From a bacterium (GTDB lineage Bacteria > SAR324 > JACQKK01), in assembly GCA_965205845.1 (NCBI GenBank), contig CBDBIG010000003.1, forward strand, positions 20,453 through 84,452: 64,000 bases of DNA, read 5' to 3'. The position numbers and the translations under genes are program-made. Shown piece by piece: positions 1 to 60,812 of the stretch (positions within the stretch are counted from its first letter, which is position 1; each line of letters begins with the position of its first letter). Under the pieces are notes generated by a model. That model did no database searches. It was not told the DNA's origin and saw nothing but the letters and a program-made list of their open reading frames with translations.

Positions 1-410
1 ACCTGGGGGATGGTTTGGGCTTGCATGTGGGGACTCCTTATTAAGGGTGTCAGGGTGTGGTTTAAAGGGGGGGCATCCCTTTTTCTAAGCGTGCGCCAAC
101 ATAAACCTTTGGCGTTTTCATCTATAGCCCTCCTTGCCAGCGTTGTAGCCCTGCGCGGGGTCGGTTGCTGGGGCGAACAAACCCCCTCCTGCCTTGGCCA
201 CGCAAAAAAAAGAGGTTTTTTACCCATGCCTTATAGGCGCGTCTCCCCTTTGAGATGCCATTTTTGTCGTGCTGCGCTTAAACTGTTGATGTCAATTTTC
301 ATGACGGGTCTCCTTTATTTATTTAAGCAAAACATGGGGCTGCTTGTGTGCCGCGTATAAATGCGAACAGGCAGGTGCACGCAGACGCCTGTTTTTGGGC
401 TTGATCGGGT

Positions 411-1443
411 TCATTCGCTAACTCCTCCCCGCTCGGAATAAGCGGTTTTAAGGTGGCTTAGGCTAAGGGCCTGCCGTGCCCCGTTTGCCGCCAGGCTGGC
501 CAAGCGTAGGGTTTTGGTAACCTCACGCAGTGCGCCGTGGCCGTGACCAATTTTGATTAAAAAGCCAAGGGCTTTCTGCTCGCTTACTCCCCATGCTTGG
601 GCAATGGCCTCTACATCGGCACGGCGGGCTTTTTTGGGGTTTAACACCTTGCCAACGCGGCTAAACAACTGGGCATACTCTGCCGAGCGCGGGCCGCTCA
701 TCCGGGTGTAGACGCTCTCGTTGCCCATGAACACCAGGGCGCAAGCAGTGGCATCGTGCAAAGCGCGTAGGCATTCCAAGGCGGGGCGGGTAAGGTGCTG
801 TGCCTCGTCTATAATCAGCAGGGCGTCTTTTTTTGAGAGATAGGCTGAGAAGCATGCGGTAAACCACATCTCCCCCGCGTCCGTCCGCGCGCTGGCTTGG
901 GGCAAGGGCAAACAAAAGGGCTTTAAGGCAGGCAGGGGCGCTGGCAAAACTGGGCACCATTGTGCACACCCAGCAATTAGGGCGGGTTTGGGCGTAGTGC
1001 TGGGCGGTGATGGTTTTGCCAACCCCTGCGCCACCGCACACCACCGCGATGTCGCGGCTTAGGTGGGCGTAGGCAATGGCCATGCCGATTTGGCGGGCTG
1101 TGGGGGTTTCTATCCAGTCTGCGCCCTTGCTGGGCAAAAAGGCGGTTTGGCAGGCTTGGTCTTCTAGCCATTGGCAAACCTTGGCTTCAAGGGCGGCGTT
1201 ATCGCCCGTGTACTTGCCGTTAAGCCAGCGCGAAAGCGCTGTTGCCCCGCACCCAATCCGCTTGGCCGCATCGGCTTGGGACAGGCACTGCTCGGTTAAG
1301 ACCGTCTGTAGCCCCGACCGCAAAATTGACGCCTGATTGCTCGCCTCGGCGGCGGGCAATGGGGACTTTGCTAACGGGGTGAGTGGTGGCTGATCGCCCT
1401 CTTGCACCACCTGTAAACTAGGGGTTGCCTTTGCTTGGTGCAT
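411..1443 (-). pseudogene. MuB-like AAA+ transposition ATPase, split across two overlapping frames (single frameshift near 900-1030)
   Basis: The N-terminal HTH plus Walker A (VVCGGAGVGKT) lies in ORF 661-1443. Walker B (LLIIDEAQHL) and the C-terminus lie in ORF 411-1034 in another frame. Confidence 0.6.
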
Positions 1444-1541
1444 GTTTTATACTCCATGTATTGTGTTGGTTGGCGGGGCTCTATGCCCCGCGGTTTAAGC
1501 CCTGCTACGGTTCTTGGCTGTCCGTGTGGGGCTTTTTGGTT

Positions 1542-3480
1542 TTAAAAGCCCTCCACCTGGCGCTGTGCTTCCATTTGTTTAAGGGCGTTTTCCAGCCCCC
1601 TGTTAAAGTTCTCTCTCTCCTCTTGGCTTACCTCTTCGTCTGACTTGCGCTGGGCAAACACCCCCGTGATGATTTTGGACGTGTGCTCCTCGGCTGGGGG
1701 CGCGCCCGTGCTAAGCCCCGCCGCCACCTCGGCCGCACTTAGGGTGCGCTGGGCGGCCAGTTCTTCTTTGGTGGCTTTTTTGTGCTGTTTTTGCGCCTTG
1801 GCATGGGCCCTGGCGGCGGCTTGATCGGTATACCCAATCGCGGCAATACAAGGCGCAAAGCACACCAGACGCCCATCGGGGGTTTCAACCTGCACGCCAT
1901 CGCGCGGGGCGTCGGGGTCAAAGCGCACCGTGAGATGCTTGCCGGCGTAGGGGGCTAGTTTTTTGTGCCAGAAACGGTTGCCCAAAATCCTAACGCTGGC
2001 ATCGTCGCGGTGAGCCAACACCTTCTCGGCTGCCATCAAAAAGGCGCGCTGCTGCTGGGGTGTGGCTTTGGTGATTGGGGCTTGGGCGTAGCTCTGGTTG
2101 TAAACCGCATCAAAACTGCGCCCGTTGCACACGCCCCCGGTGCGCCCCGTTTGGGCATTGTGCAAGGCAATTTGCCGGTTTGCGTGGGTCCGAAAGGCTT
2201 CAATCTCAATCGCCTTGCTGGCATAGTTCTCGGGCTTGGCGCTGGGGCTGTTGCCCGTGTAGGCGCCCGCGCAAAAGGGGTGCTTTGCAATGCTTTCACA
2301 CAGGTCTTTAAAGGCGCGTTCAATGGGCTTTGATTGGCCATGATAGGGCATTGCCCAGTGGATTTTGCAGCCCAAAGCCGTGAGCAAACCTTGGGGTTCT
2401 TCTGCCTTGATTTTAAAGCGAAAGCGGTTTTTAGCCCCGCCCGTTAGCCACTTGCTAGCAAAGGCGCGCCCGTTGTCGAGCAGCACGGCTTGGGGCACGC
2501 CGTGGTTTTTAAGCAGGTCGGCAAAAGCTAAACGCACCAACAAGGTGCTCTCGTTTAAGCCAATCCGCCAAGCCACAATTTTGCCCCTCGTAAACATCCT
2601 GCAAGGCAAGCAACATGGGGCGCACGGGCTTTTTTTGCCCTGGCCACTTGGTAAAAACATCAAAGCGGTGACCATCGCCGCAAACCAAGGCCAGCGCAAA
2701 AAGGTCTTTTGCGGTGCGCTCTTGGGCGGGGTAGGTGTTTTCTAATGCCCCTTCGCCGCGCCTTGCTAGCATAATCGTAGGGCGTGACACCTCGCGCTTT
2801 AGCCTGCGGGTAAGGGTTTTTAAACTGGGCAGTTGCCAGTCGTTTTGGGCGGCTGCCTGTTGCAAGCGGCGGTAGCAAGCCGTGGCGCTGGGGCGTTCGG
2901 GGCGCAAATAGTCGCTTTTGTAGATACTCCAAGCCTCAAGGGTGCCATTGGCCGTTTGTTGCCCGCCGCCGTGGCTGGGCGCAAGCATCGGAAGCCAGTC
3001 GGTGATTGGGTAGGAACGCACCCGCTCAAGCCAACGGAACACGGTTTTACGGTCGGGGGCTGCCCCCTGTTTTTGCAGGGCTGCGATGGCTTGGTTGCGG
3101 GTTAAGCCGTTGCTCTCCAGTGCAAGCAGGGCCATTAAAACCGCCATGCGCTTGTGGCCTTGTTTTTGCTGGCTCCCAGGCAAACGGCCAAACGCATCCC
3201 AACGCTGAATTGAAGAAGAGGATGCGCCATCCTTGGCGCGTTTCATGGCCTGCTTGCCCTCCTTTGTGTGGGTTGTATACCAGCGCATTGCCAATGCCGC
3301 CTGAACTGCCCTGGGCAGGCTGCCAAAATGGTATTCCTTGCCGCCGCCACAGCCTATGGGTGAACGTGAGAGTGACTGAAAACGCCAGGCTTCTTTGTCG
3401 GCCATGCGGCGTATTACGCGTTCATTTATTGACAAACCCGCCACACCGACCAATTCTTGTGCGCTGTACCATTGTTGCAT
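1542..3480 (-). pseudogene. MuA-like DDE transposase, split across two frames (frameshift within 2509-2699; may be an authentic pseudogene or a sequencing error in a T-homopolymer)
   Basis: The N-terminus (MQQWYSAQELVGVAGL) is an MuA-type DNA-binding domain. The first catalytic Asp region (CGDGHRFDVF) is in ORF 2509-3534. The DNGRAF second-Asp region and the remaining core are in ORF 1542-2699. Confidence 0.6.
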
Positions 3481-3697
3481 GCTGCTGTATCCTTTTTTAT
3501 ACAAACAATTCGCCCGTCTGCGAGTTTCGCCCATCGTTTAGGCCAGATTTCCCAAAGTGGAACTTGAATAATTTTTGTTGCGCAGTTAAATTTTACCGTT
3601 TTTCGCAAATAAGATACTGATGTCTTTGTTTTTGTTAATTTTTTACGCATCTATCAATGGATAGATTGTTGCGTACTTCTTTGCACAGTTTGGAGGG

Positions 3698-3997
3698 TTA
3701 AGTACGCAATGCGGGGGTCGTGATTTCCCTCTTGTTTTTAACGAACTCAAGCTCGTATTTCACGACAACCTTGATTTCTTTGAGAGCGCAATCCAGACAT
3801 GCGGGGGTCGTGATTTCCCTCTTGTTTTTAACGAACCCAAGCTTGTATTCCACGACAGCCTTTGCGGTGGCAGTCTCAAAATTGCCGTTCTCATCTTCAA
3901 AACCCTCGGTAATCTCATAATTGTGGTCCGCATTGGGGAAGAGTTCCTGCCCGCATTTGCAGTGGGTGCTTGTGGTTTGTTGTGTTTTTAGTGCCAT
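3698..3997 (-). CDS. hypothetical small protein between ner and A, with an internal ~24-aa duplication encoded by an imperfect 63-bp direct repeat (3708-3770 and 3795-3857)
   Basis: The ORF is on the same strand as ner and A. The repeat is visible in both DNA and protein. No family was recognised. Confidence 0.3.
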   Translation of the reverse strand: MALKTQQTTSTHCKCGQELFPNADHNYEITEGFEDENGNFETATAKAVVEYKLGFVKNKREITTPACLDCALKEIKVVVKYELEFVKNKREITTPALRT

Positions 3998-4314
3998 TTG
4001 GTAATGCGTCCTTGTTGGTTTGTGTTATGCCCTTGTTTCATCATGCTCCAAGCCAGCCTTTTCTTGCGGATGCCCGTGCCCATTGGCGAACCGTCCGCCT
4101 TGTAACGGCTGGGCCAAATCACCTGCGGGTGCACCCCTATAATATCGGCAATCGTTTTTTCTAAATCCGGCCAGCGCTGGATTTTGACGCGACAGCAAAC
4201 GCAGGCGTAGGAATAGCCTTTTTCTTTTGAAATCCTGGTAAGGGTGTAGCCCTTTTTTGCCAAGGCTGCCCTAACGTCCATCCAATGCCAGTCTTGGGAG
4301 GTATTTGTGTCCAT
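3988..4314 (-). CDS. ner: Ner-like DNA-binding regulator with a ~30-aa C-terminal extension
   Basis: DWHWMDVRAALAKKGYTLTRISKEKGY ... RWPDLEKTIADIIGVHPQVIWPSRY aligns with Mu Ner (DWHRADVIAGLKKRKLSLSALSRQFGY ... HWPKGEQIIANALETKPEVIWPSRY). Confidence 0.8.
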   Translation of the reverse strand: MDTNTSQDWHWMDVRAALAKKGYTLTRISKEKGYSYACVCCRVKIQRWPDLEKTIADIIGVHPQVIWPSRYKADGSPMGTGIRKKRLAWSMMKQGHNTNQQGRITKWH

Positions 4315-4505
4315 GACGCCTTTTTTGATATAATTTTTAGAAAGCGGTTTTTTAAACTAAAAATACAATAGCATTAGCGTTTAAAAAAATGCAATAGCAA
4401 ATTTGTTTTTTTTTTGAGTCCGAGTTCATATTTATTTTTAAAACCACACAAGGCAATGGAAATCCTTTGTTTATAGGGGCTAAGGACGGTTATACAGGTG
4501 AAAAT
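4315..4505. promoter_or_regulatory. divergent ner/c promoter-operator region, AT-rich, with repeated caatagca motifs and the DR0 copy gagtccgagtt (4416-4426)
   Basis: Intergenic region between divergent ner and c. Repeats are 21 bp apart. AGGTGA RBS sits 6 nt upstream of the ATG at 4506. Confidence 0.5.
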
Positions 4506-5609
4506 ATGAGTCCGAGTTTGGGTCCGAGTTCGAGTAGTAAACTCGGACACTTTATCAAAAGGCTCCGTCTGCTTATGCAAGGACAGACTGAAAAGTCTTT
4601 CTCTACCCAAGTAGGACTTCATCAAGCCACATTTAGGCGATATTTAGACGGCAGCGAACCATCCAGGAAATCTTTAATTGCTATTGCAAATGGGGCTAAT
4701 GTCACCATTCAATGGCTGGCCACTGGTGAGGGCCCGATGCGCCCTGTTGAAAGCCTGATGTACCCCGAGGATGAAAGCCTTGAGGAGGATATCGCGCGGA
4801 TGGAGGCGAAAATGGCCCGGGAGGATGCGGAGTCGCTTCGAAAAACGGGCAAGCCTAAGGTTTGGCGGTCGTCCGATGTGGAGATGGATGAAGGGACCGC
4901 GCTGATGATCAGGGTGCATTTAGCGGAAAACAGCCGCCTGAGCAAAGAAAACGAGGCCCTGAGGGCCGCGGGCTTTGGTGGGGGGCCGGCCCCGTCCCTT
5001 GCCTTGGAGCAGGAAATTGCGGAGTTGAAGCGCAGAATTGAAGCGCAACAAAACCTGCTGAACGACACCCATTCGATGAGGAATGATTTCGACGCCAAAA
5101 GGCGGGAAATTGAATTGCTTAAAGAGATGGCCGCGCTTAAGCAACTGGTTAAACAGCCCCCGCCCCCGCCTACCACAAGCGGTATTGCCAACATGACCCT
5201 GCTGGGCTTGGCGGAATGCGGGCTGGTGGGTTGGCAGCAAAAAAGGCCCTTAAGCGTAAAAGCGAACTGCCCCGCCGATATGAACCCCGCAGAAGACTTT
5301 GCGGTGATGGCCACGGGACACAGTCTGTTTTACGCGGGGATTGAGCCTGGCTTTATCTGTTTTTGCGCGCCTAAAAGCGAGGCACAGGTGGGGGATGTGG
5401 TGTTTGTGCTAAAGCCGAACAACCTTGCCAGTTTGGGATTGGTGAAAGAATTAAAGCGCAAAGAAGGGGGAGTAGAATGGCTGGTGCTCCAAAAATGGGA
5501 CGACCCCGACCCCAAAACGGGGGAGCGAAAACCTTACACCCTGAAAGAAAACATGGACGAAATAGAACAGGTTGTGCCCGTGATTTATGTGCAACGCAGG
5601 GCGGTTTAG
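4506..5609 (+). CDS. prophage repressor (CI/Mu c-like): N-terminal HTH_XRE, central coiled-coil, C-terminal S24/LexA-like domain
   Basis: QTEKSFSTQVGLHQATFRRYLDG is an HTH. The C-terminus (VMATGHSLFYAGIEPGF...VGDVVFVLKPNN...LVKELK) has a LexA-like fold. The gene is divergent from ner. The ATG at 4506 has a good RBS; the ORF track starts earlier at a TTG (4467). Confidence 0.7.
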   Translation: MSPSLGPSSSSKLGHFIKRLRLLMQGQTEKSFSTQVGLHQATFRRYLDGSEPSRKSLIAIANGANVTIQWLATGEGPMRPVESLMYPEDESLEEDIARMEAKMAREDAESLRKTGKPKVWRSSDVEMDEGTALMIRVHLAENSRLSKENEALRAAGFGGGPAPSLALEQEIAELKRRIEAQQNLLNDTHSMRNDFDAKRREIELLKEMAALKQLVKQPPPPPTTSGIANMTLLGLAECGLVGWQQKRPLSVKANCPADMNPAEDFAVMATGHSLFYAGIEPGFICFCAPKSEAQVGDVVFVLKPNNLASLGLVKELKRKEGGVEWLVLQKWDDPDPKTGERKPYTLKENMDEIEQVVPVIYVQRRAV

Positions 5610-7640
5610 AAAAAAAGGAGTTTAAAGCTAGATTATTTTTTATTTTTGAGCCAATCGCGCAAAAGCCTTTATAAAACAAGGGCTTGATCCATGAAAAGGG
5701 CGAAAAATTGAGTTTAAAGCTGAGTTTAAAGCTAGAGCACCTAGCTTTAAACTTTTGCGGGGTGGTTTTGGGGGTTTGTGCTAAAGCCGAACAGCCTTGC
5801 CCGTTTGGGATTGGTGAAAGAATTAAAGCGCAAAGAAGGGGGAGTAGAATGGCTGGTGCTCCAAAAATGGGACGACCCCGACCCCAAAACGGGGGAGCGA
5901 AAACCTTACACCCTGAAAGAAAACATGGACGAAATAGAACAGGTTGTGCCCGTGATTTATGTGCAACCCAGGGCGGTTTAAAAAAAAAGGAGTTACAAGC
6001 TAGATTATTTTTTATTTTTAGGCCAACCGCACAAAAGCCTTTATAAAACAAGGGCTTGATCCATAAAAAGGGCGAAAAATTGAGTTACAAGCTGAGTTAC
6101 AAGCTAGAGTGCCCAGCTTGTAACTTTTGCGGGGTGGTTTTGGGGGTTTGTGCTAAAGCCGAACAGCCTTGCCCGTTTGGGATTGGTGAAAGAATGGAGG
6201 CACAAAGAAGGGGGGCAACCTGGCTGGTGCTCCAAAAATGGGACGACCCCAACCCCAAAACGGGCGAGCGAAAACCCTACACCTTGCAAGAGAACATGGA
6301 CGAAATAGAACAGGTTGTGCCCGTGATTTATGTGCAACCCAGGGCGGTTTAAAAAAAAAGGAGTTCACAGTTCAATTATTTTTTATTTTTGAGCCAACCG
6401 CACAAAAGCCTTTATAAAACAAGGGCTTGATCCATAAAAAGGGCGAAAAATTGAGTTCAAAGCTGAGTTCAAAGCTAGAGTGCCTAGCTTTGAACTTTTA
6501 CGGGGTGGTTTTGGGGGTTTGTGCTAAAGCCGAACAGCCTTGCCCGTTTGGGATTGGTGAAAGAATGGAGGCACAAAGAAGGGGGGCAACCTGGCTGGTG
6601 CTCCAAAAATGGGACGACCCCAACCCCAAAACGGGCGAGCGAAAACCCTACACCTTGCAAGAGAACATGGACGAAATAGAACAGGTTGTGCCCGTGATTT
6701 ACGTGCAACCCAGGGCGGTTTAAAAAAAAAGGAGTTCAAAGCTAGATTATTTTTTATTTTTAGGCCAACCGCACAAAAGCCTTTATAAAACAAGGGCTTG
6801 ATCCATGAAAAGGGCGAAAAATTGAGTTCACAGTTCAGTTCACAGTTCGAGCGCTGAACTGTGAACTTTTGCGGGGTGGTTTTGGGGGTTTGTGCTAAAG
6901 CCGAACAACCTTGCCCGTTTGGGATTGGTGAAAGAATGGAGGCGCAAAGAAGGGGGGGCAACCTGGCTGGTGCTCCAAAAATGGGACGACCCCAACCCCA
7001 AAACGGGGGAGCGAAAACCCTACACCTTGCAAGAGAACATGGACGAAATAGAACAGGTTGTGCCCGTGATTTATGTGCAACCCAGGGCGGTTTAAAAAAA
7101 AGGATGTTATTTTTGATTCGTAAAAAACTATTTTTGATATTAACTATGTTGTTGATTTAAAAATAGAAATTTTCTTTACATGGATTCGTAAATAGATTCG
7201 TAAAAAACTATGGAATAACGAATCGTGAAGTGCCGAACTCCGACCTTTTGCGGGGTGGTTTTGGGGGTTTGTGCTAAAGCCGAACAGCCTTGCCCGTTTG
7301 GGACTGGTGAAAGAATGGAGGCGCAAAGAAGGGGGGGCACAATGGCTGGTGCTCCAAAAATGGGACGACCCCGACCCCAAAACGGGGGAGCGAAAACCTT
7401 ACACCTTGCAAGAGAACATGGACGAAATAGAACAGGTTGTGCCCGTGATTTACGTGCAACCCAGGGCGGTTTAAAAAAAAAGGAGTTCAAAGCTAGATTA
7501 TTTTTTATTTTTAGGCCAATCGCGAAAAAGTATTTTCAAAACAAGGGTTTGATCCATGAAAAGGGCGAAAAATTGAGTTCAAAGCTGAGTTCAAAGCTAG
7601 AGCACCTAGCTTTGAACTTTTACGGGGTGGTTTTGGGGGT
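5402..7640. repeat. tandem array of six ~371-bp units (unit starts ~5402, 5775, 6146, 6517, 6888, 7267; last partial unit to 7640). Each unit is a c-leader-like module plus a copy of the last ~200 bp of the c gene
   Basis: The C-terminal 67 codons of c recur in ORFs 5778-5981, 6056-6352, 6427-6723, 6892-7095 and 7271-7474. The intervening ~170 bp is homologous to the c 5' leader. Confidence 0.9.
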
Positions 7641-7759
7641 TTGGTTTTACGCTTCAAACGCATTATTCCTTAGAAATTTCACAAAATCGCTACATTGTTG
7701 GCACCACTTTACGGTCACACTGGGGTAAAAAAACCTAGCGTGGGTAAGGTGGGTGGCAC

Positions 7760-10787: not shown

Positions 10788-11238
10788 AACTTTGCAGTCT
10801 TTTTTCAAAATCCATCAGACTTGTTTGAAGGTGGGGCTTTGTGCCGCGTTGGTTTTGCTAGGTGCGTGTACAGGGCGCGACTTTGCGCGGGTAACCCCAC
10901 CACTCGATCTGTATTCAGGCCAAGTGGCTGATTTGGGCCGCAAGGAGTGGCAGCAAGTGATTGTCACAAGCTGCCGTGCGGGCAGTAATGCAAGCAAGCG
11001 CCACGATTGTGAAGAAGAAGGAAAGGTACTTTTGCAGGCGGATAGTGCGCCTGCAAAGATTATTTCCACCATGTGTAACGAGTTTTCTACCACGCAAGGC
11101 ATGGCTGCGTGCTATTCCCAGGCCATTCAAATGGCCAATCACGATGCGCTTCGCCGCTTTCGTAACAGTTGTTCAGACGTACACCCAAAACCTAAGGCGT
11201 TTGTTACCTGCCTGCGCAAAGGCTTTCAGGCCTTTTAG
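10777..11238 (+). CDS. hypothetical lipoprotein (lipobox LLGAC); overlaps the thiolase stop by 11 nt
   Basis: Signal peptide plus lipobox. The 3' end including the stop is tandemly duplicated downstream. Confidence 0.4.
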   Translation: MLPETLQSFFKIHQTCLKVGLCAALVLLGACTGRDFARVTPPLDLYSGQVADLGRKEWQQVIVTSCRAGSNASKRHDCEEEGKVLLQADSAPAKIISTMCNEFSTTQGMAACYSQAIQMANHDALRRFRNSCSDVHPKPKAFVTCLRKGFQAF

Positions 11239-11344
11239 TGTTTTTAAAAATGCCCGTTGTTCGGACGTACACCCAAAACCTAAGGCATTGTTACCTGCCT
11301 GCGCAAAGGCTTTCAGGGCCTTTTAGTGTTTTTAAAAAATGCCC
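11168..11344. repeat. 88-bp x2 tandem duplication covering the stop codon of the lipoprotein gene
   Basis: 11168-11255 and 11256-11344 are ~95% identical. Confidence 0.9.
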
Positions 11345-11564
11345 GTCGTGTTGCTGCTCTAACACGCCAAGTAGCGTCACCGTCTGCCAATGCCGAGGGG
11401 TATTTATTTTGAAGCGTTTGGCGCATGGCTCTCCAAAGGCCGCCTGCCCGCATTTTAAAAAAATCACCCATGGCGCATCGAAGCTTTAAAAAATGGTTTT
11501 TTTAAGATTGGGGCTCAAAGGAAAACTCCGATGGGAACCATCTTTTAAAAAAGGGTTCGTGGTT

Positions 11565-15116: not shown

Positions 15117-15857
15117 CTACTGTAGTATCGATAAAAAATGGGTTTCTGTGCTGCGAAACACGTTCAGGTCGACGGGCGTTTGAATACCCTTCACGTTTCC
15201 ACGATCAGAAAATTGCCAAAACAGCCAGTTTTTTGGGCGAAGGGGACGCTGCCAGCGGTTACGCATCCAAATACGGGGATGTTGTAAATCGGCAAGGGCG
15301 TAAGCTTGATAAAACTGCCGCGTAACATAGATAATCGGCTTTTGAGCGTAGGTACGCTCAATTTCTTGTATCAAAAAAAGGACCTCTCCTTGCAACACCT
15401 CAATGCCAGGGCGCTTGCTGCAATTGCCTCCAAACTCCAAATCAATCGCGGGCGGCAGCGTGCCTTCTTCGGGTGGGGCCACGGCCAGCAGGTTTTTAAA
15501 TTGGTCGACAGCGGGGCGGCAGAGGGTAAAAAAATGGTAGGCACCGCGCACCAACCCCGCATCTTGGGCACCTTTCCAGTTTTCTACAAAGCGCGGATCA
15601 CGAAAATCACCCCCTTCGGTGGCTTTAATAAACACGAAGCGAAATTCGTCCGCGTCAATTTTTGTCCAGTCAATACGCCCTTGGTGATGGGAGACGTCCA
15701 GCCCCCAAAGATCAAATTCTCTGCGGGTGGGGTGGTTTAAACGTAACCAGTCTTGCTGATAGGCAGTATATAAGCCCAGCAATGCGCTGCCCAAAAGGAG
15801 GGTGATCCCCAAAAGCAAGCACGTTTTTTGGCGAGACAAAACAGGCATAAAGCACAC
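15117..15857 (-). CDS. GH25 lysozyme (muramidase) with N-terminal signal anchor
   Basis: GLDVSHHQGRIDWTKI ... FVFIKATEGGDFRDPRF ... GAYHFF. Confidence 0.75.
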   Translation of the reverse strand: MCFMPVLSRQKTCLLLGITLLLGSALLGLYTAYQQDWLRLNHPTRREFDLWGLDVSHHQGRIDWTKIDADEFRFVFIKATEGGDFRDPRFVENWKGAQDAGLVRGAYHFFTLCRPAVDQFKNLLAVAPPEEGTLPPAIDLEFGGNCSKRPGIEVLQGEVLFLIQEIERTYAQKPIIYVTRQFYQAYALADLQHPRIWMRNRWQRPLRPKNWLFWQFSDRGNVKGIQTPVDLNVFRSTETHFLSILQ

Positions 15858-15886
15858 GTTTGTAAGATAAAAAAGAAGGGGCTATG

Positions 15887-16160
15887 AAGGCGTCGTTTTA
15901 CGGGCGTGGAACCACAGGCTTTATCCCGTGAACATGCTCAAAAATCTCACCGCCAACGTGGCCCCAAAGATGAAGGCGTCGTTTTACGGGCGTGGAACCA
16001 CAGGCTTTATCCCGTTAACATGCTCAAAAATCTCACCGCCAACGTGGCCCCAAAGATGAAGGCGTCGTTTTGCGGGCATGGAACCACAGGCTTTATCCCG
16101 TTAACATGCTCAAAAATCTCACCGCCAACGTGGCCCCAAAGATGAAGGCGTCGTTTTACA
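15887..16160. repeat. 86-bp tandem repeat, 3.3 copies
   Basis: Units 15887-15972, 15973-16058, 16059-16144, then a partial copy. Confidence 0.9.
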
Positions 16161-16361
16161 AGGCAACGCGACCTTGGCACGAAATCGGGCTACCAAGAGA
16201 TACCTTCGGTGTGGATCACGAGGCAGGGTATGTTTGCGCAACACGCTAAAAACTTGTCTAAAAGCGGATGGCACGCCATGCCTAAAAATATAGCATAAGA
16301 AAGTCTGCGCCTATTTTAACGGACAGCAAGCGACAACACCATTTTTGAGCGTGTCAGTAAG

Positions 16362-16772
16362 TGGAGGCGGCGGGAGTCGAACCCGCGTCCTAATGGTGGT
16401 GAACTAAACGTTACTACAGGCTTAGCGACGTTTTGCGTTTAACAATGAGGATGTTGAAGCCGTCGCGGTCTCACCTCATGCGAGTTTGCCCTAGGAATTC
16501 GCCCAAAACACCAGCAAACCACTGTGCATAGGCTAGCACCATAAATGACACGGAAAAAGCGCTTATCGTGCGTGGGCACCTCCGCGGTCCAGCCCCTAAA
16601 TTAATAGGGGTGTAAGCACTCTGCTAAACCGCAATTAAGCGGCGAGGGCTACTGGAGCGTAGTTGCTGTTATTGGCATCTACGTGTGTGAACGATTTTTT
16701 ACGTGGCCCTTCGCTCAACCACGGCCTGCTCGCCTAATATCTCCTTCCACAGTCGAATGCCATAACGCCCCC
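16362..16772 (-). ncRNA. ssrA: tmRNA (ssrA), standard one-piece; predicted tag peptide ANNSNYAPVALAA
   Basis: 5' GGGGGCG...GCATTCGAC and 3' GGACGCGGGTTCGACTCCCGCCGCCTCCA form a tRNA-Ala-like acceptor with G3:U70. The 3' domain aligns with E. coli ssrA. The resume frame is GCC AAT AAC AGC AAC TAC GCT CCA GTA GCC CTC GCC GCT TAA. Confidence 0.8.
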
Positions 16773-21850: not shown

Positions 21851-21890
21851 CGTTGCAAAAAGTGCCGTGTAAAAATAATCCCCTTGTGCC

Positions 21891-22345
21891 CCCTAGCGCG
21901 GTGTTTGTTTGGGTTTGCTGCCAAATGCATTTAAATGGTTTTGTAAAAATTGCCCCACGCGGCGCCATTTGGGAGCGATTTTGGGCGTACGTTGCAGCGC
22001 ATTTAACGCCTGGTTTGCAACGGGCACATTACCCGCTTGCACCCTAGCGCGGTGTTTGTTTGGGTTTGCTGCCAAATGCATTTAAATGGTTTTGTAAAAA
22101 TTGCCCCGCGCGGCGCCATTTGGGAGCGATTTTGGGCGTACGTTGCAGCGCATTTAACGCCTGGTTTGCAACGGGCACATTACCCGCTTGCACCCTAGCG
22201 CGGTGTTTGTTTGGGTTTGCTGCCAAATGCATTTAAATGGTTTTGTAAAAATTGCCCCGCGCGGCGCCATTTGGGAGCGACTTTGGACGCACGTTGCAGC
22301 GCATTTAACGCCTGGTTTGCAACGGGCACATTGCCCGCTTGCACC
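21891..22345. repeat. 151-bp x3 tandem duplication of the 3' end of the TPR gene (ORF on minus strand)
   Basis: ORFs 21893-22081 and 22044-22232 encode identical 62-aa peptides equal to the C-terminus of 22195-23403. The unit contains the palindrome GCATTTAAATGC. Confidence 0.9.
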
Positions 22346-23403: not shown

Positions 23404-23809
23404 GGGGGTTGGTGTATCTCAAAAAAACATTTCGCACGGATGTGCGTTGTTAAACAAAGGCGTATGTGCGCTCCGCTGCACAGTGCTGAGGTTTAAGATG
23501 GGATGGTGCCCATTGCAAAACCGCGCATCCATACCCTTTTTTCTGGGCACGGGCACTTATTTTTTTAGCACTTTAACCCATGGCTGCTATAATACCCACT
23601 TGAGCCTGCCTTTTGACAAAAAATTAAACGCGTCCATACCCCTGGGTTTATGGAAATGGGCGAACCCTTGCGCCGACCAAGATTGTGTTGGCGCACTTTT
23701 TGCCTTACTGCTTGCCATGGTAGCGTGCCTGTTTAAGGCATGACACATGACCCGTTTTTGGTTACTATTTGGTATATATCCACACGCCCTTGTGGAAAAA
23801 CAAGACTTC

Positions 23810-24406
23810 ATGGAAAATAACCCTACGAAAATGGCTATTCTCTCTCGTTACCCCGAAAGTCAGAAAAAAGATTACATCTTTGTACTTGCCCATGCTTTTA
23901 GCGAGTTTGAGGAAAGGCCAGCGGAAGAATGTGCGCTGTTTAACGATTGGGTATTAAATTTCAGGATTCCACAGGAATACCACAGCCAACTCAATCAAAT
24001 CATTGATGGCGATTGGTTGGATAAACAATACACAAAGCGCATTGAGCGCTTGGTGATGCACCGCTTGGCGGATCCCTTGTTGCTCGATTCAATGGCGTTG
24101 GCCATGTCCGATGGGGTGTTGATGGACGATGAAGTGGATGCCTTGCGCAACTTGGCAACAGCAATGAACGTGTCTTCGGTGCATTTTAACATTTATCTTG
24201 AGCTCATTCACTCCGCTTACCAGGCCGCCTACCTCGAAAACCCAGAACCTTTGTTTGAGCACAACATCGAGCAAGCCTTAAACTTGCTGTGTCAACGAAG
24301 GGTGGTTCTCTTTGAACACGCAAAACTTTGTACCTGCTCAAAAGACTACAATGGAAAAATTAAGCAGCACTGGCTACGAATGAGCCAGCACAAAAGGGCT
24401 CGCTAA
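23810..24406 (+). CDS. TerB-like domain protein
   Basis: MSDGVLMDDEVDALRNLATAMNVS is TerB-like. Start probably MENNPTK rather than the ORF start. Confidence 0.4.
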   Translation: MENNPTKMAILSRYPESQKKDYIFVLAHAFSEFEERPAEECALFNDWVLNFRIPQEYHSQLNQIIDGDWLDKQYTKRIERLVMHRLADPLLLDSMALAMSDGVLMDDEVDALRNLATAMNVSSVHFNIYLELIHSAYQAAYLENPEPLFEHNIEQALNLLCQRRVVLFEHAKLCTCSKDYNGKIKQHWLRMSQHKRAR

Positions 24407-24628
24407 GCAAGAAAGGCTAGGAAACCTTTTGCGCCCATTGCAAAACGAGGCTCATTGGAAAGTAAGCGTGGCTCTCTTTGAACACGCAAAACTTTGTACC
24501 TGCTCAAAAGACTACAATGGAAAAATTAAGCAGCACTGGCTACGAATGAGCCAGCACAAAAGGGCTCGCTAAGCAAGAAAGGCTAGGAAACCTTTTGCGC
24601 CCATTGCAAAACGAGGCTCATTGGAAGG
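24304..24628. repeat. ~160-bp x2 tandem duplication covering the stop codon of the TerB-like gene
   Basis: 24304-24462 and 24470-24628 are nearly identical. Confidence 0.9.
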
Positions 24629-24667
24629 TAATCAAAGCATGTCAGTCGGTTTTTTTGGGGTAGACCA

Positions 24668-27705: not shown

Positions 27706-27804
27706 TGGCGGAGATGCGTGGGAATCGAACCCACCCAAAGCGGTATCAGCGCCCTGCACACGGGTTTGAAGCCCGGGAAGCCCACCAGTGACTCATCCAT
27801 CTCC
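27706..27804 (-). tRNA. selC: tRNA with anticodon UCA and a ~26-nt variable arm; candidate tRNA-Sec (selC) or UGA-reading tRNA-Ser derivative
   Basis: Anticodon loop CUUCAAA is identical to the E. coli selC loop. Discriminator G73, encoded CCA, 99 nt. The D-arm is not canonical 6/4. Confidence 0.55.
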
Positions 27805-28016
27805 CTAAAACGAACGGTCCACACGGCTTACTGGCATGCTGCGTGCGTGTGCCGACCACGAACGATGATTGGGGTACGCTCTAAACTCTGTTGGAAAAAA
27901 AGCATTTGCGCAAGCACTAAAAACACATTCTTTGGGCTTGACATAGTCCTCCCTAAAACACGAGACTGCTGGTTGGAAGCGCGATGAAAGTGCGCTTTTC
28001 CAAAATGATCAGAACT

Positions 28017-28089
28017 GGGGATGTAGCTCAGATGGGAGAGCACGACGCTGGCAGTGTCGGGGTCAGGGGTTCGATCCCCCTCATCTCCA
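28017..28089 (+). tRNA. tRNA-Ala (GGC)
   Basis: Cloverleaf with anticodon loop CTGGCAG and G3:U70. CCA not encoded. Confidence 0.85.
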
Positions 28090-28202
28090 CTTCGCTTCAA
28101 AAACCAAAATAACGAATGGGGTTGGGCGAGGAACTTGCCCCTTGAACCCGCGATGAAGCCGCGCTTTTGCACCCGATGCGTTTTGTAAAGCAGCGCTTTC
28201 TT

Positions 28203-46073: not shown

Positions 46074-46220
46074 TAACGCTTTGCCATGGTGGGTTTTGGG
46101 CGAGCCATGTGTTGGGCTTCCTTAACGCTTTGCCATGGGGGGTTTTGGGCGAGCCATGTGTTGGGCTTCCTTAACGCTTTGCCATGGGGGGTTTTGGGCG
46201 AGCCATGCCTGGGCTTCCTT
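46074..46220. repeat. ~49-bp x3 tandem repeat covering the 3' end and stop codon of the cca gene
   Basis: Units 46074-46122, 46123-46171, 46172-46220. Confidence 0.9.
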
Positions 46221-47642
46221 AACTGTCGAAAAACAACCTTCTATTTGTGCATTAAGCGCGTGGCGCACGCAATCTCCCATCTTGGGGCCGGGGGACATGC
46301 CTAGTGCCAAAAAATGCCGCCCAAGCAGCAGGGGCTGTAAGGGTTTTTGCCACACACCCAATTGTTTGGCCAAGGTCTCAAGGCGCAATGCCCCGACAGC
46401 AGGGGTATTAGGGTACTTGCTTTGGTGAATGGCCGCGGATAAAAAAGCCAAATGCTGGCAGCCACGCACCTGGGCCAACTGGCGCACACAGGCAGCAGCT
46501 GCGGCCTCATCTAACTGCTCAAACCCCTGTATGCTCTGCCATTGGGCCAAAAGTTCAAGTATCCATTGCTTGATGTTCACCTGATGGGTCACCCGATTGA
46601 GTAAGGATTCAACATGCACCAATGGTGTTGGCTTTGCCTTTGGAGTGTTGGGGTGGTTGGCTAACATGGGTTCTAGCAGTGCGCTTAAACATAGGGTCAC
46701 CCACGTATCTTCATCGAGCAAGGCAGGGCTGGTGGAGGCAGGGGTTTGGCTAGTTTCACCCTTTTCAAGTCCGCCTTTGCGCAAAATGGCGCACATGGCA
46801 TCGACCGCCTTCAAGGCCTGCCGCCATGCGGGGCATGGTGCCTGCTGGACATACTTTGCGGGGGTGCGAAAGGCTGGTATGCAGGTGGCATGGTTGGTCT
46901 TCGTCGTGTTGGTTTGCAAGCTCCTGCCGGAATACAGTGCTTGAAGTTCAGGAAGGTAGGGCAATACGCCCGCAGTGTGCATGTAGCGCAAGCCTTGAGA
47001 GGGCTGGGGAGATCGCAAAAACAGTTTGCGTATTTCCTCCCAAATACGCTCGCGAGGCAGTTCGCTCAAATCTTGCTGGCGACACATGGCAAGGGTGTTG
47101 GGATCGATTTTGAAATGAAAGCGCCCTGCAAACTGCAGACCCCTTAGTACCCGCAAAGGATCCTCGGAAAATGCGGGACCAACGTGTCGCAACACGCGTC
47201 TGGTTAAGTGTTTTTGTCCCTGGTGAGGGTCAAGCAACGCGCCCTCTAAAAATGCGTAGCCTATGGCATTTATGGTGAAATCCCTGCGTGAAGCCGCGGT
47301 GAAAAAATCCATGTCTGGGTCGCAATCTATCCAAAAGCCCTTGTGTCCCTTGCCCATGTTGCGTTCTTTACGCGGAACGCTAAAGTCGTATTCGTGATGG
47401 TTGCCCATGAACTTAAGCACCCCAAAGCTGCGCCCCACGCTATGCACTCGCCCAAAGGGGGTTAGAGTGTGTTTGAGCGTTTGCAAAGAAAGGTTAAAAA
47501 CCTCCACATCCCAATCTTTATCGACCCTCATGCCCAGCAGTTGATTGCGCACGCTGCCGCCCACCAACACGGGGTTCCCCCCCGCTTGGGCAATGGCCTG
47601 GCCAATTGTCATCAATTCCTTGGGTACGTGCAACTTAGGCAT
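46122..47642 (-). CDS. cca: tRNA nucleotidyltransferase (CCA-adding) / poly(A) polymerase family
   Basis: GGSVRNQLLG...D.D nucleotidyltransferase head. Confidence 0.65.
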   Translation of the reverse strand: MPKLHVPKELMTIGQAIAQAGGNPVLVGGSVRNQLLGMRVDKDWDVEVFNLSLQTLKHTLTPFGRVHSVGRSFGVLKFMGNHHEYDFSVPRKERNMGKGHKGFWIDCDPDMDFFTAASRRDFTINAIGYAFLEGALLDPHQGQKHLTRRVLRHVGPAFSEDPLRVLRGLQFAGRFHFKIDPNTLAMCRQQDLSELPRERIWEEIRKLFLRSPQPSQGLRYMHTAGVLPYLPELQALYSGRSLQTNTTKTNHATCIPAFRTPAKYVQQAPCPAWRQALKAVDAMCAILRKGGLEKGETSQTPASTSPALLDEDTWVTLCLSALLEPMLANHPNTPKAKPTPLVHVESLLNRVTHQVNIKQWILELLAQWQSIQGFEQLDEAAAAACVRQLAQVRGCQHLAFLSAAIHQSKYPNTPAVGALRLETLAKQLGVWQKPLQPLLLGRHFLALGMSPGPKMGDCVRHALNAQIEGCFSTVKEAQAWLAQNPPWQSVKEAQHMARPKPPMAKR

Positions 47643-52230: not shown

Positions 52231-53718
52231 TTGAACTCAAAATTTTTAAGCGCGAGGTTTACACTCAATTTGGAATTCACGAATACCTTGTATTATGGGG
52301 ATAATTTAGGCGTTTTAAAAAACCTCTCTAAAAGAGACCCGTTCATCGACCTGATTTACAGCGATCCACCTTTTAACTCAAAGAAGAACTACAATATACT
52401 ATACAAAGACCTCATCACCTCAAAAGAAAACGGCGAAAAAGCCACAGCACTCAAAGAGGCCTTTAAAGATACCTGGAGCAATGTTGAAATCGGAAATGAA
52501 CTCGAAGAATTAAAAAGGCTGGATAACCTCAAGATCTTTCAATTTCTCCACAACAACAGAGGCGTTTTTGGGGATGATCAAATGATCTATCTCACCATGA
52601 TGGCCATTCGCGTGTACTACATGAAAAAAGTGTTGAAGGAGACGGGAAGTTTTTACCTGCATTGCGATCCAACCATGAGCCACTACCTTAAGGTGTTGCT
52701 TGATATTATCTTTGGCAAAAACCATTTTAGGAACGAGATTGTGTGGCATTACAGACGATGGACTGCTGCCTCACAACACTTTCAAAAGATGCATGACATC
52801 ATTTTTCGCTACACAAAGTCTGAGACCTTTTGCTTTAACCTTCAGTATGAACCCTACGGTGACTGGATTAAAAAAGATTACGGCTATCTTGATGAAAAAT
52901 CAGGGAAACGCTGGCGTTGGCATACCGTAAAAGGAAAACGCTACAAAGTGTTTTTGGAGGATGAAGACCAGGGCGTAAAACTTAACGATGTTTGGCAAAT
53001 TCCCCCAATAGGATCCACAGCAAAAGAACGGTTGGGCTACCCCACCCAAAAGCCCGTGGCATTGTTAAGGCGGGTTATCGAAGCAAGTAGTAACAAAGGT
53101 GATGTGGTCGCGGATTTTTTTTGCGGCTGTGGGACCACCATTGCCGCAGCCCAAGAATTGGAGCGGAAATGGCTTGGGGTCGACATTAGCCATTTGGCTG
53201 TTGGCCTGATTGAAGACAAGAGGCTAAAAAATCTGAAACCCATTCCAAGTTATGGGGTCAAAGGATTTCCGAGCGACGTGGCAGAAGCAGAAAAGCTGGC
53301 AACAGAGAAGCCGTTTGAATTTGAAAACTGGATTGTTGAATACAAGCTTCACGGGCATGGCACCCAAAAAACGGGCGATGGAGGATTTGATGGGCATCTT
53401 GCGCTCGACTTTGTGGGCAAAAGGATCTCTTGCATCATCGAGGCAAAAGGCGGAAAGTGTGGCATAAAAAATATCAGGGAGTTTCATGCTGTCATGGCAA
53501 AGCAAGGGGTCGATGTGGGGCTGTTTGTGTGTTTTGAAAAGCAAGTTAGCGATGGGATGCGAAAATACTGTGATGCGGAGGGCTTGATTGACATAGGCGG
53601 TGGAAGCACCCTCAACATGTTTCAAATTCAAAAAATAGGCATTCTCACGGTGGAATCCTTGCTGGCCAATCAATACCCCCACTGGTTAAACACGTTTATT
53701 GCCAACCAAACCTACTAA
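52231..53718 (+). CDS. beta-class amino-DNA methyltransferase (N4C/N6A) fused to a C-terminal Mrr_cat-type PD-(D/E)xK nuclease domain
   Basis: SDPPF (motif IV) precedes DFFCGCGTT (motif I). The C-terminus has TGDGGFDGH...IIEAKG. Local GC is visibly lower than the flanks. Confidence 0.65.
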   Translation: MNSKFLSARFTLNLEFTNTLYYGDNLGVLKNLSKRDPFIDLIYSDPPFNSKKNYNILYKDLITSKENGEKATALKEAFKDTWSNVEIGNELEELKRLDNLKIFQFLHNNRGVFGDDQMIYLTMMAIRVYYMKKVLKETGSFYLHCDPTMSHYLKVLLDIIFGKNHFRNEIVWHYRRWTAASQHFQKMHDIIFRYTKSETFCFNLQYEPYGDWIKKDYGYLDEKSGKRWRWHTVKGKRYKVFLEDEDQGVKLNDVWQIPPIGSTAKERLGYPTQKPVALLRRVIEASSNKGDVVADFFCGCGTTIAAAQELERKWLGVDISHLAVGLIEDKRLKNLKPIPSYGVKGFPSDVAEAEKLATEKPFEFENWIVEYKLHGHGTQKTGDGGFDGHLALDFVGKRISCIIEAKGGKCGIKNIREFHAVMAKQGVDVGLFVCFEKQVSDGMRKYCDAEGLIDIGGGSTLNMFQIQKIGILTVESLLANQYPHWLNTFIANQTY

Positions 53719-57986: not shown

Positions 57987-59738
57987 GTGTATTCGGTTGC
58001 CATGATGAATGGATGGATGGTTCAAAACCCCCTGGGCATAAAACCCATGGTTTGGTTATTGGTGTTGGGCATTGCTTGCATTGGCGGGGAAACACTCGGG
58101 CTGGCACAAGACACGGGTGCCCCTCCCCAAAGGGAGGTAGGGGAGGATAAAACCGATGCACATGGCAGTGCAAAAGCCAAAAAAGGCGGGGCGATGCGCT
58201 TGCGCCTTCCTGTTTCCCCCCCCTTGTTGCACCCCTTAAATGCCACGGATGCCTACGGTAACCGCGTGCTCGATAGCATTTATGAGTCCTTGGCAGATAC
58301 CGATGTGGATACCTTACGCTTTATTCCATTGTTGGCCTCACGTTGGAAAAAATCCCCCGATAGCCTGACGTATACCTTTTATTTAAACCCCAAAGCACGT
58401 TGGCACGATGGCAAGCCCGTCACCGCTGGCGATGTGGCCTTTAGCTTTGACGTACTCTTTGATTCCAATTTAAAGACCCGTGCCAAGTGGCAGTCGTATT
58501 ACAGCAATATCGCCTCGGTAAGGGTTATTGATACCTATACGGTCCGTTTTAGGGTGAAAAGGGATCATTTTCGAAATTTTATCAACCTTGCCACCTTGCG
58601 TATTGTGCCCAAACACTACTTTAAGCCAAACGAGCCCAACCAAACCGTTTTGGCCAAAAAGCCCGTGGGCAGTGGGCCCTACCGCTTTGTGTCCTGGAAA
58701 AAGGGGAGCCGGATTACCCTCAAACGCCATGCCGAGTATTGGGGCAAAAACCTCCCCCAAAACCGAGGGCGCTATAACCTGCGCCTGCTGCTTTACAAGG
58801 TGGTAACCAATAACAAGGTGGCCTTGCAATCGCTGCAAAAAGGCGAACTGGATCTGCTGGGCTTAACCCCCGAACAATGGAAAAAAGAAACCAAGAACCC
58901 AAAAATCTACGGCCAAGGTCCCATTACCAGTGCCCCCGTGGTCAAATTGAACGTGCAAAACCTCTCGCCACGGAGTTACAGCTACGTGGGTTGGAATCTT
59001 GCCTCCCCGTTGTTTAACGACCGCCGCGTACGCTTGGCTTTAAGCCATTTGTTCGATCGCAAAACCTTTATACAAAAGCTGTTTCATGGCTTGCGCGAGG
59101 AGGCAGTGGGCCCTTTTGCGTCCAATTCGCGCTATCGCTCGCCCAAAATTAAACCCATTCCGTTCTCGATTGCCGAGGCAGGGAGATTGTTTAAAGAGGC
59201 TGGTTGGACGGATAGCGATCAAGATGGTGTGCTTGATAAGAAGGGCCAAGCGATGCGCTTTACCGTGCTTACAGCCGACCCCGAAACAGGGGTAAAAATG
59301 CTAACCCTTGCCAAGCAGTCGATGCAAAAAGCGGGGGTCGATTTGCGCATTAAGGTGGTGGATTGGGCTGCTTTGCTAAAACTGATTGATGACCTCCGCT
59401 TTGATGCCGTGATGCTGGGTTGGTCCCGCAGTGCCTGGCCTGATCCCACCGCGTTATGGCACTCCAAAAGTGCGGTGGCGGGGGGGCTCAACTTGGTGCG
59501 TTACAAAAACCCCGAGGTCGATAATCTGATTGCAAAGGGGGTCAAATCGATACCCGACAAGCAACGGGTGGTGCTTTTTAGGCGGATACACGAGATCCTT
59601 TTTCGTGATCAACCCTATACTTTTTTGCTCGAAAGTGGGCATCAACTCACTGCCTATCGCAACCGTTACCATCAGGTCAAGCCTTGGTTTCACTACAGCC
59701 TTGGGAGCGATTATTGGTGGGAAAAATCCGTTAAATGA
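57987..59738 (+). CDS. ABC transporter substrate-binding protein, family 5 (OppA/DppA-like)
   Basis: Signal peptide; SBP_bac_5-like. Confidence 0.7.
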   Translation: MYSVAMMNGWMVQNPLGIKPMVWLLVLGIACIGGETLGLAQDTGAPPQREVGEDKTDAHGSAKAKKGGAMRLRLPVSPPLLHPLNATDAYGNRVLDSIYESLADTDVDTLRFIPLLASRWKKSPDSLTYTFYLNPKARWHDGKPVTAGDVAFSFDVLFDSNLKTRAKWQSYYSNIASVRVIDTYTVRFRVKRDHFRNFINLATLRIVPKHYFKPNEPNQTVLAKKPVGSGPYRFVSWKKGSRITLKRHAEYWGKNLPQNRGRYNLRLLLYKVVTNNKVALQSLQKGELDLLGLTPEQWKKETKNPKIYGQGPITSAPVVKLNVQNLSPRSYSYVGWNLASPLFNDRRVRLALSHLFDRKTFIQKLFHGLREEAVGPFASNSRYRSPKIKPIPFSIAEAGRLFKEAGWTDSDQDGVLDKKGQAMRFTVLTADPETGVKMLTLAKQSMQKAGVDLRIKVVDWAALLKLIDDLRFDAVMLGWSRSAWPDPTALWHSKSAVAGGLNLVRYKNPEVDNLIAKGVKSIPDKQRVVLFRRIHEILFRDQPYTFLLESGHQLTAYRNRYHQVKPWFHYSLGSDYWWEKSVK

Positions 59739-60812
59739 TAACGCCAGCCACACAGCCTTGGGAGCGATTATTGGTGGGGAAAAGGTGTTAAATAATAACG
59801 CCAGCCCACAGCCTTGGGAGGGTTTGTTGGCGGGAAAAGGCGTTAAATGATAACGCCAGCCACACAGCCTTGGGAGCGATTATTGGTGGGGAAAAGGCGT
59901 TAAATGATAACGCCAGCCTAACAGCCTTGGGAGCGATTGTTGGCGGGAAAAGGCGTTAAATGATAACGCCAGCCACACAGCCTTGGGAGCGATTATTGGT
60001 GGGAAAAATCCGTTAAATGATAACGCCAGCCACACAGCCTTGGGAGCGATTATTGGTGGGAAAAATCCGTTAAATGATAACGCCAGCCACACAGCCTTGG
60101 GAGGGATTGTTGGCGGGAAAAAGGTGTTAAATGATAACGCCAGCCCACAGCCTTGGGAGGGTTTGTTGGCGGGAAAAAGGCGTTAAATGATAACGCCAGC
60201 CCACAGCCTTGGGAGGGATTGTTGGCGGGAAAAAGCCGTCAAATGATAACGCCAGCCACACAGCCTTGGGAGGGATTGTTGGCGGGAAAAAGGCGTTAAA
60301 TGATAACGCCAGCCCACAGCCTTGGGAGGGATTGTTGGCGGGAAAAAGCCGTCAAATGATAACGCCAGCCACACAGCCTTGGGAGGGATTGTTGGCGGGA
60401 AAAAGCCGTCAAATGATAACGCCAGCCACACAGCCTTGGGAGGGATTGTTGGTGGGGAAAAGGCGTTAAATGATAACGCCAGCCTAACAGCCTTGGGAGG
60501 GATTGTTGGTGGGAAAAATCCGTTAAATGATAACGCCAGCCACACAGCCTTGGGAGGGATTGTTGGCGGGAAAAAGGTGTTAAATGATAACGCCAGCCCA
60601 CAGCCTTGGGAGGGTTTGTTGGCGGGGAAAAGGCGTTAAATGATAACGCCAGCCCACAGCCTTGGGAGGGATTGTTGGCGGGAAAAAGCCGTCAAATGAT
60701 AACGCCAGCCACACAGCCTTGGGAGGGATTGTTGGCGGGGAAAAGGCGTTAAATGATAACGCCAGCCACACAGCCTTGGGAGGGATTGTTGGCGGGGAAA
60801 AGGCGTTAAATA
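59695..60812. repeat. ~19 tandem copies of a 57-61-bp unit derived from the last codons, stop and downstream hairpin of the SBP gene
   Basis: Each unit carries GGCGTTA-aatga-TAACGCC (7-bp stem) and the TGA of the gene end. Confidence 0.9.

Follow-up and report, generated by a model that had tools for sequence, protein, structure and literature searches.

A 99-nt gene on the minus strand of the DNA analyzed here is very probably a functional selC, encoding the selenocysteine tRNA, tRNA-Sec(UCA), of a bacterium of the SAR324/Candidatus Lambdaproteobacteria lineage. As a gene, selC is of a known kind, and here it is a normal housekeeping feature of a lineage for which the use of selenocysteine is already known; the novelty is confined to the description of a clade-specific tRNA-Sec variant and of its conserved pairing with a gene for tRNA-Ala(GGC). 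The stretch of DNA under study (64 kb; hereafter, the window) was scanned with ARAGORN and, using Infernal, against all Rfam families. ARAGORN, by which a preliminary description of the locus had proposed to check the gene, returns tRNA-SeC(tca), and the Rfam family RF01852 aligns with it over the full model (1–91 of 91) at a score exceeding the gathering score of 47 (Table 1). Together, the two detectors bear out the coordinates, strand, length and UCA anticodon given in that description, and ARAGORN and RF00005 do the same for the divergent tRNA-Ala. The identity as selC, which had been put forward for a candidate, is upheld by both programs and, as detailed below, by 17 homologues and the covariation among them.

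Table 1. Features of the selC locus and of the window. Positions are those of the window, except for the elements of tRNA-Sec, which are numbered from the 5' end of the tRNA.
Feature	Position	Strand	Detail
selC, tRNA-Sec(UCA)	27706–27804	-	ARAGORN: tRNA-SeC, anticodon tca, 99 nt
RF01852 (tRNA-Sec) match	27710–27804	-	Infernal vs Rfam, 62.4 bits, E 2.7e-10
tRNA-Ala(GGC)	28017–28090	+	ARAGORN; transcribed divergently from selC
RF00005 (tRNA) match for tRNA-Ala	28017–28089	+	Infernal, 58.7 bits
Spacer between selC and tRNA-Ala	27805–28016		212 bp
tRNA-Sec acceptor stem	1–8/88–95		8:88 is G·G
tRNA-Sec D-stem	11–15,17/22–27		6 bp, bulged A16; D-loop UGGU, 4 nt
tRNA-Sec anticodon stem	28–33/41–46		29·45 unpaired; loop CUUCAAA
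tRNA-Sec anticodon UCA	36–38		7-nt loop
tRNA-Sec variable stem	49–55/63–69		7 bp
tRNA-Sec T-stem	71–75/83–87		5 bp
Direct repeat bracketing tRNA-Ala	27973–28002 and 28142–28171	+	30 nt, imperfect (77% identity)
prfB (release factor 2)	62454–63555	-	NCBIfam TIGR00020, 479.7 bits, cutoff 370
prfB frameshift site	63486–63500	-	CUU UGA C at 63492–63486
TerB-like protein	23747–24406	+	3.3 kb from selC, convergent with it
tmRNA	16359–16772	-	ARAGORN start 16361; Rfam, 132.3 bits
GH25 lysozyme	15117–15857		near tmRNA
Mu-like transposable-phage genes	661–5609		element extends beyond the left end of the window
MuB-like AAA/HTH protein	661–1443
MuA-like, first ORF	1542–2699		DDE and C-terminal domains
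MuA-like, second ORF	2509–3534		Mu DNA-binding domains
S24-peptidase repressor-like gene	4467–5609
Methyltransferase–endonuclease fusion ORF	52231–53718	+	N6/N4 DNA methyltransferase domain fused to Mrr-type restriction endonuclease domain

With its structural elements set apart, the tRNA reads, 5' to 3', GGAGAUGG AU GAGUC(A)C UGGU GGGCUU CCCGGG CUUCAAA CCCGUG UG CAGGGCG CUGAUAC CGCUUUG G GUGGG UUCGAUU CCCAC GCAUCUCC G CCA. The acceptor/T helix is of the 8/5 type and has 13 layers, seven of the acceptor pairs being Watson-Crick and the eighth a G·G. The variable region, which joins the anticodon stem to the T-stem, is 24 nt long, and the discriminator base, G73, is followed by an encoded CCA. 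The long variable arm, G73 and a non-canonical D-arm had all been pointed out beforehand, and each is found in the gene; the D-arm departs from the canonical form in its 6-bp stem, bulged A and UGGU loop. All of the features by which a bacterial tRNA-Sec is recognized are therefore present, namely UCA in a 7-nt loop, the 8/5 helix, a D-arm of 6 bp and 4 nt, the long variable arm, G73 and a covariance-model score above the threshold. Three irregularities stand out: the G8·G88 mismatch, the bulged A16 and the unpaired position 45 of the anticodon stem, where U45 stands opposite C29 (Infernal aligns this in an equivalent way, with nucleotide 45 as a bulge). The cloverleaf drawn by hand has a folding energy of -34.6 kcal/mol versus -36.3 kcal/mol for the minimum-free-energy structure, a gap of 1.7 kcal/mol; unconstrained minimum-free-energy folding did not recover the cloverleaf and gave a z-score of about 0, as is usual for tRNAs.

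The selC gene is one of three structured RNA genes that ARAGORN identifies in the window, the others being tRNA-Ala and a tmRNA with the tag peptide ANNSNYAPVALAA. The 212 bp separating selC from tRNA-Ala presumably contain the promoters of both; a consensus scan detected no sigma-70-like promoter, and just one terminator-like site, which does not adjoin selC. A run of seven T residues follows the CCA of selC and is not kept in the relatives. The two tRNAs resemble each other at their ends: the 3' acceptor strand, CAUCUCC, is identical in both, and the 5' acceptor strands are GGAGAUG in tRNA-Sec and GGGGAUG in tRNA-Ala. Position 3:70 is A-U in tRNA-Sec, and tRNA-Ala carries G3·U70. Since the acceptor strands are nearly alike, a single A3-to-G change in tRNA-Sec would create the G3·U70 identity pair of alanine. 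The tRNA-Ala gene is bracketed by a direct repeat, the core of which, GCGATGAAnnnGCGCTTTT, is a short GC hairpin with a run of T residues after it. This core occurs exactly at only these two sites and at one more with two mismatches (0.05 chance matches expected), and the repeat may be a duplicated terminator-like element.

Homologues were retrieved from species-representative genomes with a DNA pattern whose only fixed elements were G73, the anticodon loop and the 7 bp of the acceptor stem. Among the 119 loci obtained in this way, 17 have exactly the 99-nt architecture of the window gene and can be aligned with it without gaps (L047, L003, L017, L046, L040, L022, L020, L004, L007, L009, L038, L039, L102, L109, L111, L113 and L118). 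The metagenome-assembled and single-cell genomes from which they derive bear the labels SAR324 cluster, Candidatus Lambdaproteobacteria, 'Deltaproteobacteria' or unclassified bacterium. ARAGORN returns tRNA-SeC(tca) for each of the 17, and the 11 that were tested against RF01852 score between 55.6 and 68 bits. Their identity to the window gene ranges from 80 to 92 of 99 positions, and differences between homologues lie mostly in the variable arm, where they preserve pairing.

In the alignment of the window gene with these homologues (18 sequences), standard pairs occupy 92% of the cells, versus 40–57% when the partners are slid. Compensatory double changes are found in 11 pairs, of which the variable stem contributes five, the T-stem three, the D-stem two and the anticodon stem one, and the observed covariation score was reached by none of 500 shuffles. 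The D-stem is paired in 100% of its cells and the variable stem in 96.8%, and the outermost T-stem pair, 71:87, alternates between G-C and A-U in five sequences. The anticodon loop and the G73-CCA end are invariant throughout the clade; the invariance of the acceptor stem is built in by the search pattern and carries no weight. The irregular positions recur as well. A16 is present in 18/18 sequences; position 45 is U, C or A and never G, so that 29·45 is never paired; and 8:88 is G-C in one sequence and purine·purine (G·G or G·A) in the other 17. The window gene shares G88 with L022 and four further SAR324-type sequences (L009, L102, L109 and L118), and U27 with L047 only. Given that the irregularities are common to the 17 homologues and accompanied by covariation, we interpret all three as lineage-typical, conserved characters of the tRNA-Sec of this clade, not as decay.

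The irregular eighth layer extends beyond the clade, G·G being the commonest state over all 119 retrieved genes. Motifs of selA and selB were detected in the same 8-kb locus as selC in 35 cases, mostly from Coriobacteriia and other Actinomycetota, and among these the eighth layer is G·G in 20 and G·A in 6 more. Members of these groups, namely Eggerthella, Slackia and Ilumatobacter, are listed as users of selenocysteine (PMC5029168, Table S2).

The closest homologue, L047 (chromosome OZ252237.1), differs from the window gene at seven positions, four of which lie in the variable stem and preserve its pairs; of the others, two fall in the variable loop and the third at position 88, which is unpaired. 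Among the five genomes with the selC/tRNA-Ala arrangement, the spacer and flanks are unalignable and both tRNAs stand out as near-identical blocks. The contrast between these pair-keeping changes and the unalignable flanks points to purifying selection on the structure of the tRNA. A pseudogene would drift like the flanks, and such a reading was rejected on account of this contrast and the covariation.

Elements of the gene order are retained along with the tRNA. A divergent tRNA-Ala(GGC) neighbors selC not only in the window but also in L047, L003, L017 and L022, and in L003 and L017 an EnvC homologue flanks selC on its 3' side. A TerB-like protein is likewise encoded close by; its gene directly adjoins selC in L047 (2578–3348, plus strand) and in L040 (6651–7268, minus strand, chromosome OZ251219.1), whereas ftsE, ftsX and envC stand between the two in the window. 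The Pfam TerB domain, a tellurite-resistance domain, is matched at 4e-11 in the two relatives and at 0.007 in the window copy. This neighborhood probably reflects plain synteny, and any chalcogen connection of the TerB-like protein is speculation.

The relatives just described are distant ones, the closest being represented by the complete chromosomes OZ252237.1, OZ251219.1 and OZ242383.1. The best matches of the valyl-tRNA synthetase (ValRS) encoded in the window are 50–57% identical, the named ones belonging to metagenome-assembled genomes of Candidatus Lambdaproteobacteria and the SAR324 cluster. Based on these identities and names, the organism can be placed in a deep-branching and sparsely sampled part of the SAR324/Lambdaproteobacteria group. 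Other proteins are similarly isolated: the best matches of ZnuB are only 46% identical; ValRS, BamA and the EnvC-like protein form single-member clusters at 90%, and the nearest ValRS among 5.8 billion proteins is 57% identical; and a word-based protein database search at E ≤1e-10 returned for the EnvC-like protein no homologue but itself. The head-to-head arrangement of selC and tRNA-Ala(GGC) thus persists where the best ValRS match is only 57% identical.

Several known systems offer points of comparison. The selC sequence of Escherichia coli used here was verified against 5,426 E. coli genomes, in which it occurs with 100% identity and is annotated as tRNA-Sec; it confirms that the CUUCAAA loop of the window gene, containing the UCA anticodon, is identical to that of E. 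coli, as previously proposed. Both tRNAs follow the same plan, 8 + 2 + D(6/4/6) + anticodon(6/7/6) + UG + variable arm + T(5/7/5) + 8 + G73 + CCA, but only 69 positions are identical in a global alignment of 104 columns. The eighth layer is C-G in E. coli and G·G in the window, and the window tRNA adds the bulged D-stem A and the unpaired anticodon-stem position.

Closer parallels for the irregularities exist among the bacterial tRNA-Sec variants surveyed by Santesmasses et al., which include 12-bp acceptor/T stems with bulges, an anticodon-stem bulge at 43a and a D-stem bulge at 13a, the last reported as Clostridiales-specific (Santesmasses et al., 2017; PMC5330540). These variant genes come from genomes with predicted selenocysteine machinery and selenocysteine-containing genes (PMC5330540). 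Like them, the window tRNA has an extra D-stem nucleotide, leaves one nucleotide unpaired in the 3' strand of the anticodon stem and forms only 12 Watson-Crick pairs along its acceptor/T helix; unlike them, it retains eight nucleotides on both acceptor strands, making it an 8/5 tRNA with a mismatch rather than a 7/5 tRNA.

The preliminary description had also remarked on the lack of selenocysteine machinery near the gene. As an observation this stands, and it proves unremarkable. Pfam and NCBIfam scans of 42 ORFs, including every ORF of at least 250 aa, revealed no selA, selB or selD in the 64-kb window; all but three of the ORFs of at least 250 aa match another family, and those three match none. 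A six-frame scan for SelA, SelB and SelD motifs found nothing in the window or at any of the 17 SAR324-type selC loci, whereas the same scan detects all three proteins beside selC in dozens of Actinomycetota loci, which serve as a control. Because selC is unlinked from the sel genes in 17/17 relatives, their absence from the window carries no weight. The selC gene of E. coli is likewise unlinked from selAB and selD. By analogy with E. coli and with every relative examined, the sel genes and the selenoprotein genes would be expected to sit elsewhere in the genome. Selenoprotein genes were sought in the window by listing all ORF pairs joined by a single in-frame TGA and translating the most plausible ones, and none was credible: the upstream pieces are of low complexity, are not protein-like or overlap known genes.

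These observations bear on the possibility that selC is an orphan, i.e., that the lineage lost selA, selB and selD and the tRNA persists as a recent relic or for another role. We regard this as improbable. Partial and orphan selenium-trait sets are known in bacteria, among them an orphan SelD in two SAR324 single-cell genomes, and incomplete genomes can mimic such cases (PMC5029168, Table 1). The 64-kb window, as noted, contains neither selenocysteine machinery nor a selenoprotein gene. On the other hand, the non-linkage is the rule in the relatives, and the gene shows no degenerative change, the differences from L047 either keeping pairing or falling at unpaired positions. Set against the randomised non-coding DNA around it, the intact selC implies that any loss would be very recent. 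A lineage-specific loss of the pathway keeps a small probability, the organism being distant from all relatives. At the level of the phylum, use of selenocysteine is documented: 'SAR324 cluster bacterium JCVI-SC AAA005' appears, with six known selenoproteins, in a published list of selenocysteine-utilizing organisms (PMC5029168, Table S2).

A related scenario, in which SelA and SelB were lost and the intact, serine-charged tRNA serves as a low-level UGA suppressor or in a non-translational role, is more improbable still. In that event, the structure would be under selection for a reason other than selenocysteine insertion. In a milder version, which is more likely than this scenario, the SAR324-type tRNA-Sec would represent an undescribed structural subclass that co-evolved with its SelA and SelB, with the invariant bulge A16, the always-unpaired anticodon-stem nucleotide and the purine·purine eighth acceptor layer as its traits.

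How the organism reads UGA is indicated by prfB, which encodes release factor 2 (RF2) and retains a frameshift site, AAGGAGUAUCUUUGAC, of the classical programmed +1 type. Its 22-codon frame-0 leader ends AAG GAG UAU CUU UGA C, in which AAGGAG resembles a Shine-Dalgarno sequence, and the main ORF follows in the +1 frame. Among 34 family-supported genes of the window, 19 end in TAA, 11 in TAG and 4 in TGA, and no in-frame TGA occurs inside the long conserved genes of the window. Taken together, the UGA-dependent frameshift site, the TGA-ended genes and the lack of internal TGA show that UGA is a normal stop codon read by RF2; therefore, any insertion of selenocysteine must be site-specific. In this small sample of 34 genes, TGA seems under-used and TAG over-used relative to the stop usage expected at about 51% GC.

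A general opal suppressor, whether an allo-tRNA, a selC* tRNA-Cys or a derivative of tRNA-Ser, would insert serine, cysteine or alanine at UGA via EF-Tu, without SelB or a SECIS element. Mimics of tRNA-Sec of this kind exist in Deltaproteobacteria and Acidobacteria; allo-tRNAs are characterized by an 8/4 or 9/3 branch and selC* tRNA-Cys by U73, which is recognized by CysRS (Mukai et al., 2017; PMC5389517). The window tRNA resembles both in its long variable arm, in a long D-stem capped by a tetraloop, in an acceptor of more than seven nucleotides and possibly in its UCA anticodon, and some of these mimics come from Deltaproteobacteria. Moreover, G73 and the long variable arm would permit serylation, and TGA is an infrequent stop (4/34 genes). 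Nonetheless, a suppressor of this type is very unlikely here. The T-stem has 5 bp rather than the 4 or 3 of allo-tRNAs and includes three covarying pairs, among them 71:87 with its alternation of G-C and A-U. The discriminator is G73 in the window and in 17/17 relatives, not the U73 that defines selC* tRNA-Cys, and 3:70 is A-U, not the G·U of alanine identity. The RF01852 score lies well above the cutoff, RF2 with its UGA-dependent autoregulatory frameshift is present and TGA serves as a stop, and selenoproteins are documented in a member of the phylum.

The preliminary description had kept open the more specific option of a suppressor derived from tRNA-Ser, and this caveat can be dropped: A16 is invariant, the D-stem pairs surrounding it covary and the architecture is of the tRNA-Sec type. 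An ordinary type-2 tRNA-Ser is a 7/5 molecule with a 7-bp acceptor, a D-stem of 3–4 bp, a large D-loop and a serine anticodon, whereas in the window tRNA each acceptor strand has eight nucleotides, the D-stem is 6 bp long and capped by a tetraloop, and the anticodon is UCA.

The suggestion that the locus, as a selC gene, marks a hotspot of integration did not hold up. The selC gene is a known integration site in Enterobacteria, and the window has Mu-like phage genes at about 660–5600. Mu-type elements are not known to target tRNA genes, and these genes lie more than 20 kb from selC. The window is core chromosome, containing murD, ftsW, murG, ftsE, ftsX, an EnvC-like M23 peptidase, selC and tRNA-Ala, and further znuC-like and znuB-like genes, genes for a LolA-like protein and an MMPL transporter, bamA, ftsY, lysA, valS, opp genes and prfB. 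Both flanks of selC thus consist of housekeeping genes, with ftsE-ftsX-envC on the 3' side and tRNA-Ala followed by the znuC/znuB-like genes on the 5' side, and the EnvC homologue and tRNA-Ala are neighbors in relatives too. A second copy of the selC 3' end was not found within the window, even with three mismatches allowed, and there is no compositional break around selC. With syntenic flanks and no att-like repeat, a genomic island at selC was rejected, and the chance that the locus is the edge of an integrated island or prophage is negligible.

Several other features of the window deserve mention. The Mu-like genes are its sole mobile-element genes, and the splitting of MuA over two overlapping ORFs in different frames suggests a frameshift or a pseudogene. 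Large tandem repeats are unusually numerous, mostly intergenic and 87–100% identical; they occupy 5402–7643, 59695–60811, 21887–22345, 24298–24631, 61976–62416, 15884–16159, 46074–46223 and 11168–11346, the six largest being 371 bp x 6, 57 bp x 19.7, 151 bp x 3, 166 bp x 2, 224 bp x 2 and 86 bp x 3.2. The 86-bp repeat (15884–16159) lies between the GH25 lysozyme gene and the tmRNA gene. The interval between the opp-like genes for a binding protein and a permease is filled by the 57-bp array, which was rejected as a CRISPR because it lacks spacers. A separate ORF encodes a fusion of DNA methyltransferase and restriction endonuclease domains (Table 1).

As a functional selC, the gene would be expected to act as established bacterial selenocysteine biology prescribes. 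Judging from its identity elements, the tRNA would be serylated by SerRS by way of the long variable arm and G73. SelA, using selenophosphate supplied by SelD, would then convert Ser-tRNA-Sec to Sec-tRNA-Sec. SelB would recognize the 13-layer acceptor/T helix and deliver the charged tRNA to in-frame UGA codons that precede a SECIS hairpin in the mRNAs of selenoproteins, and RF2 would read all other UGA codons as stops. A tRNA with a UCA anticodon would presumably be tolerable only if kept off ordinary UGA codons, as is accomplished by the SelB/SECIS route. The preliminary description had inferred that UGA is decoded as selenocysteine or suppressed somewhere in the genome. The genome is that of a probable selenocysteine user, and gene callers applied to it should allow for a small number of in-frame TGA codons outside the window, formate dehydrogenase being one gene where they may occur.
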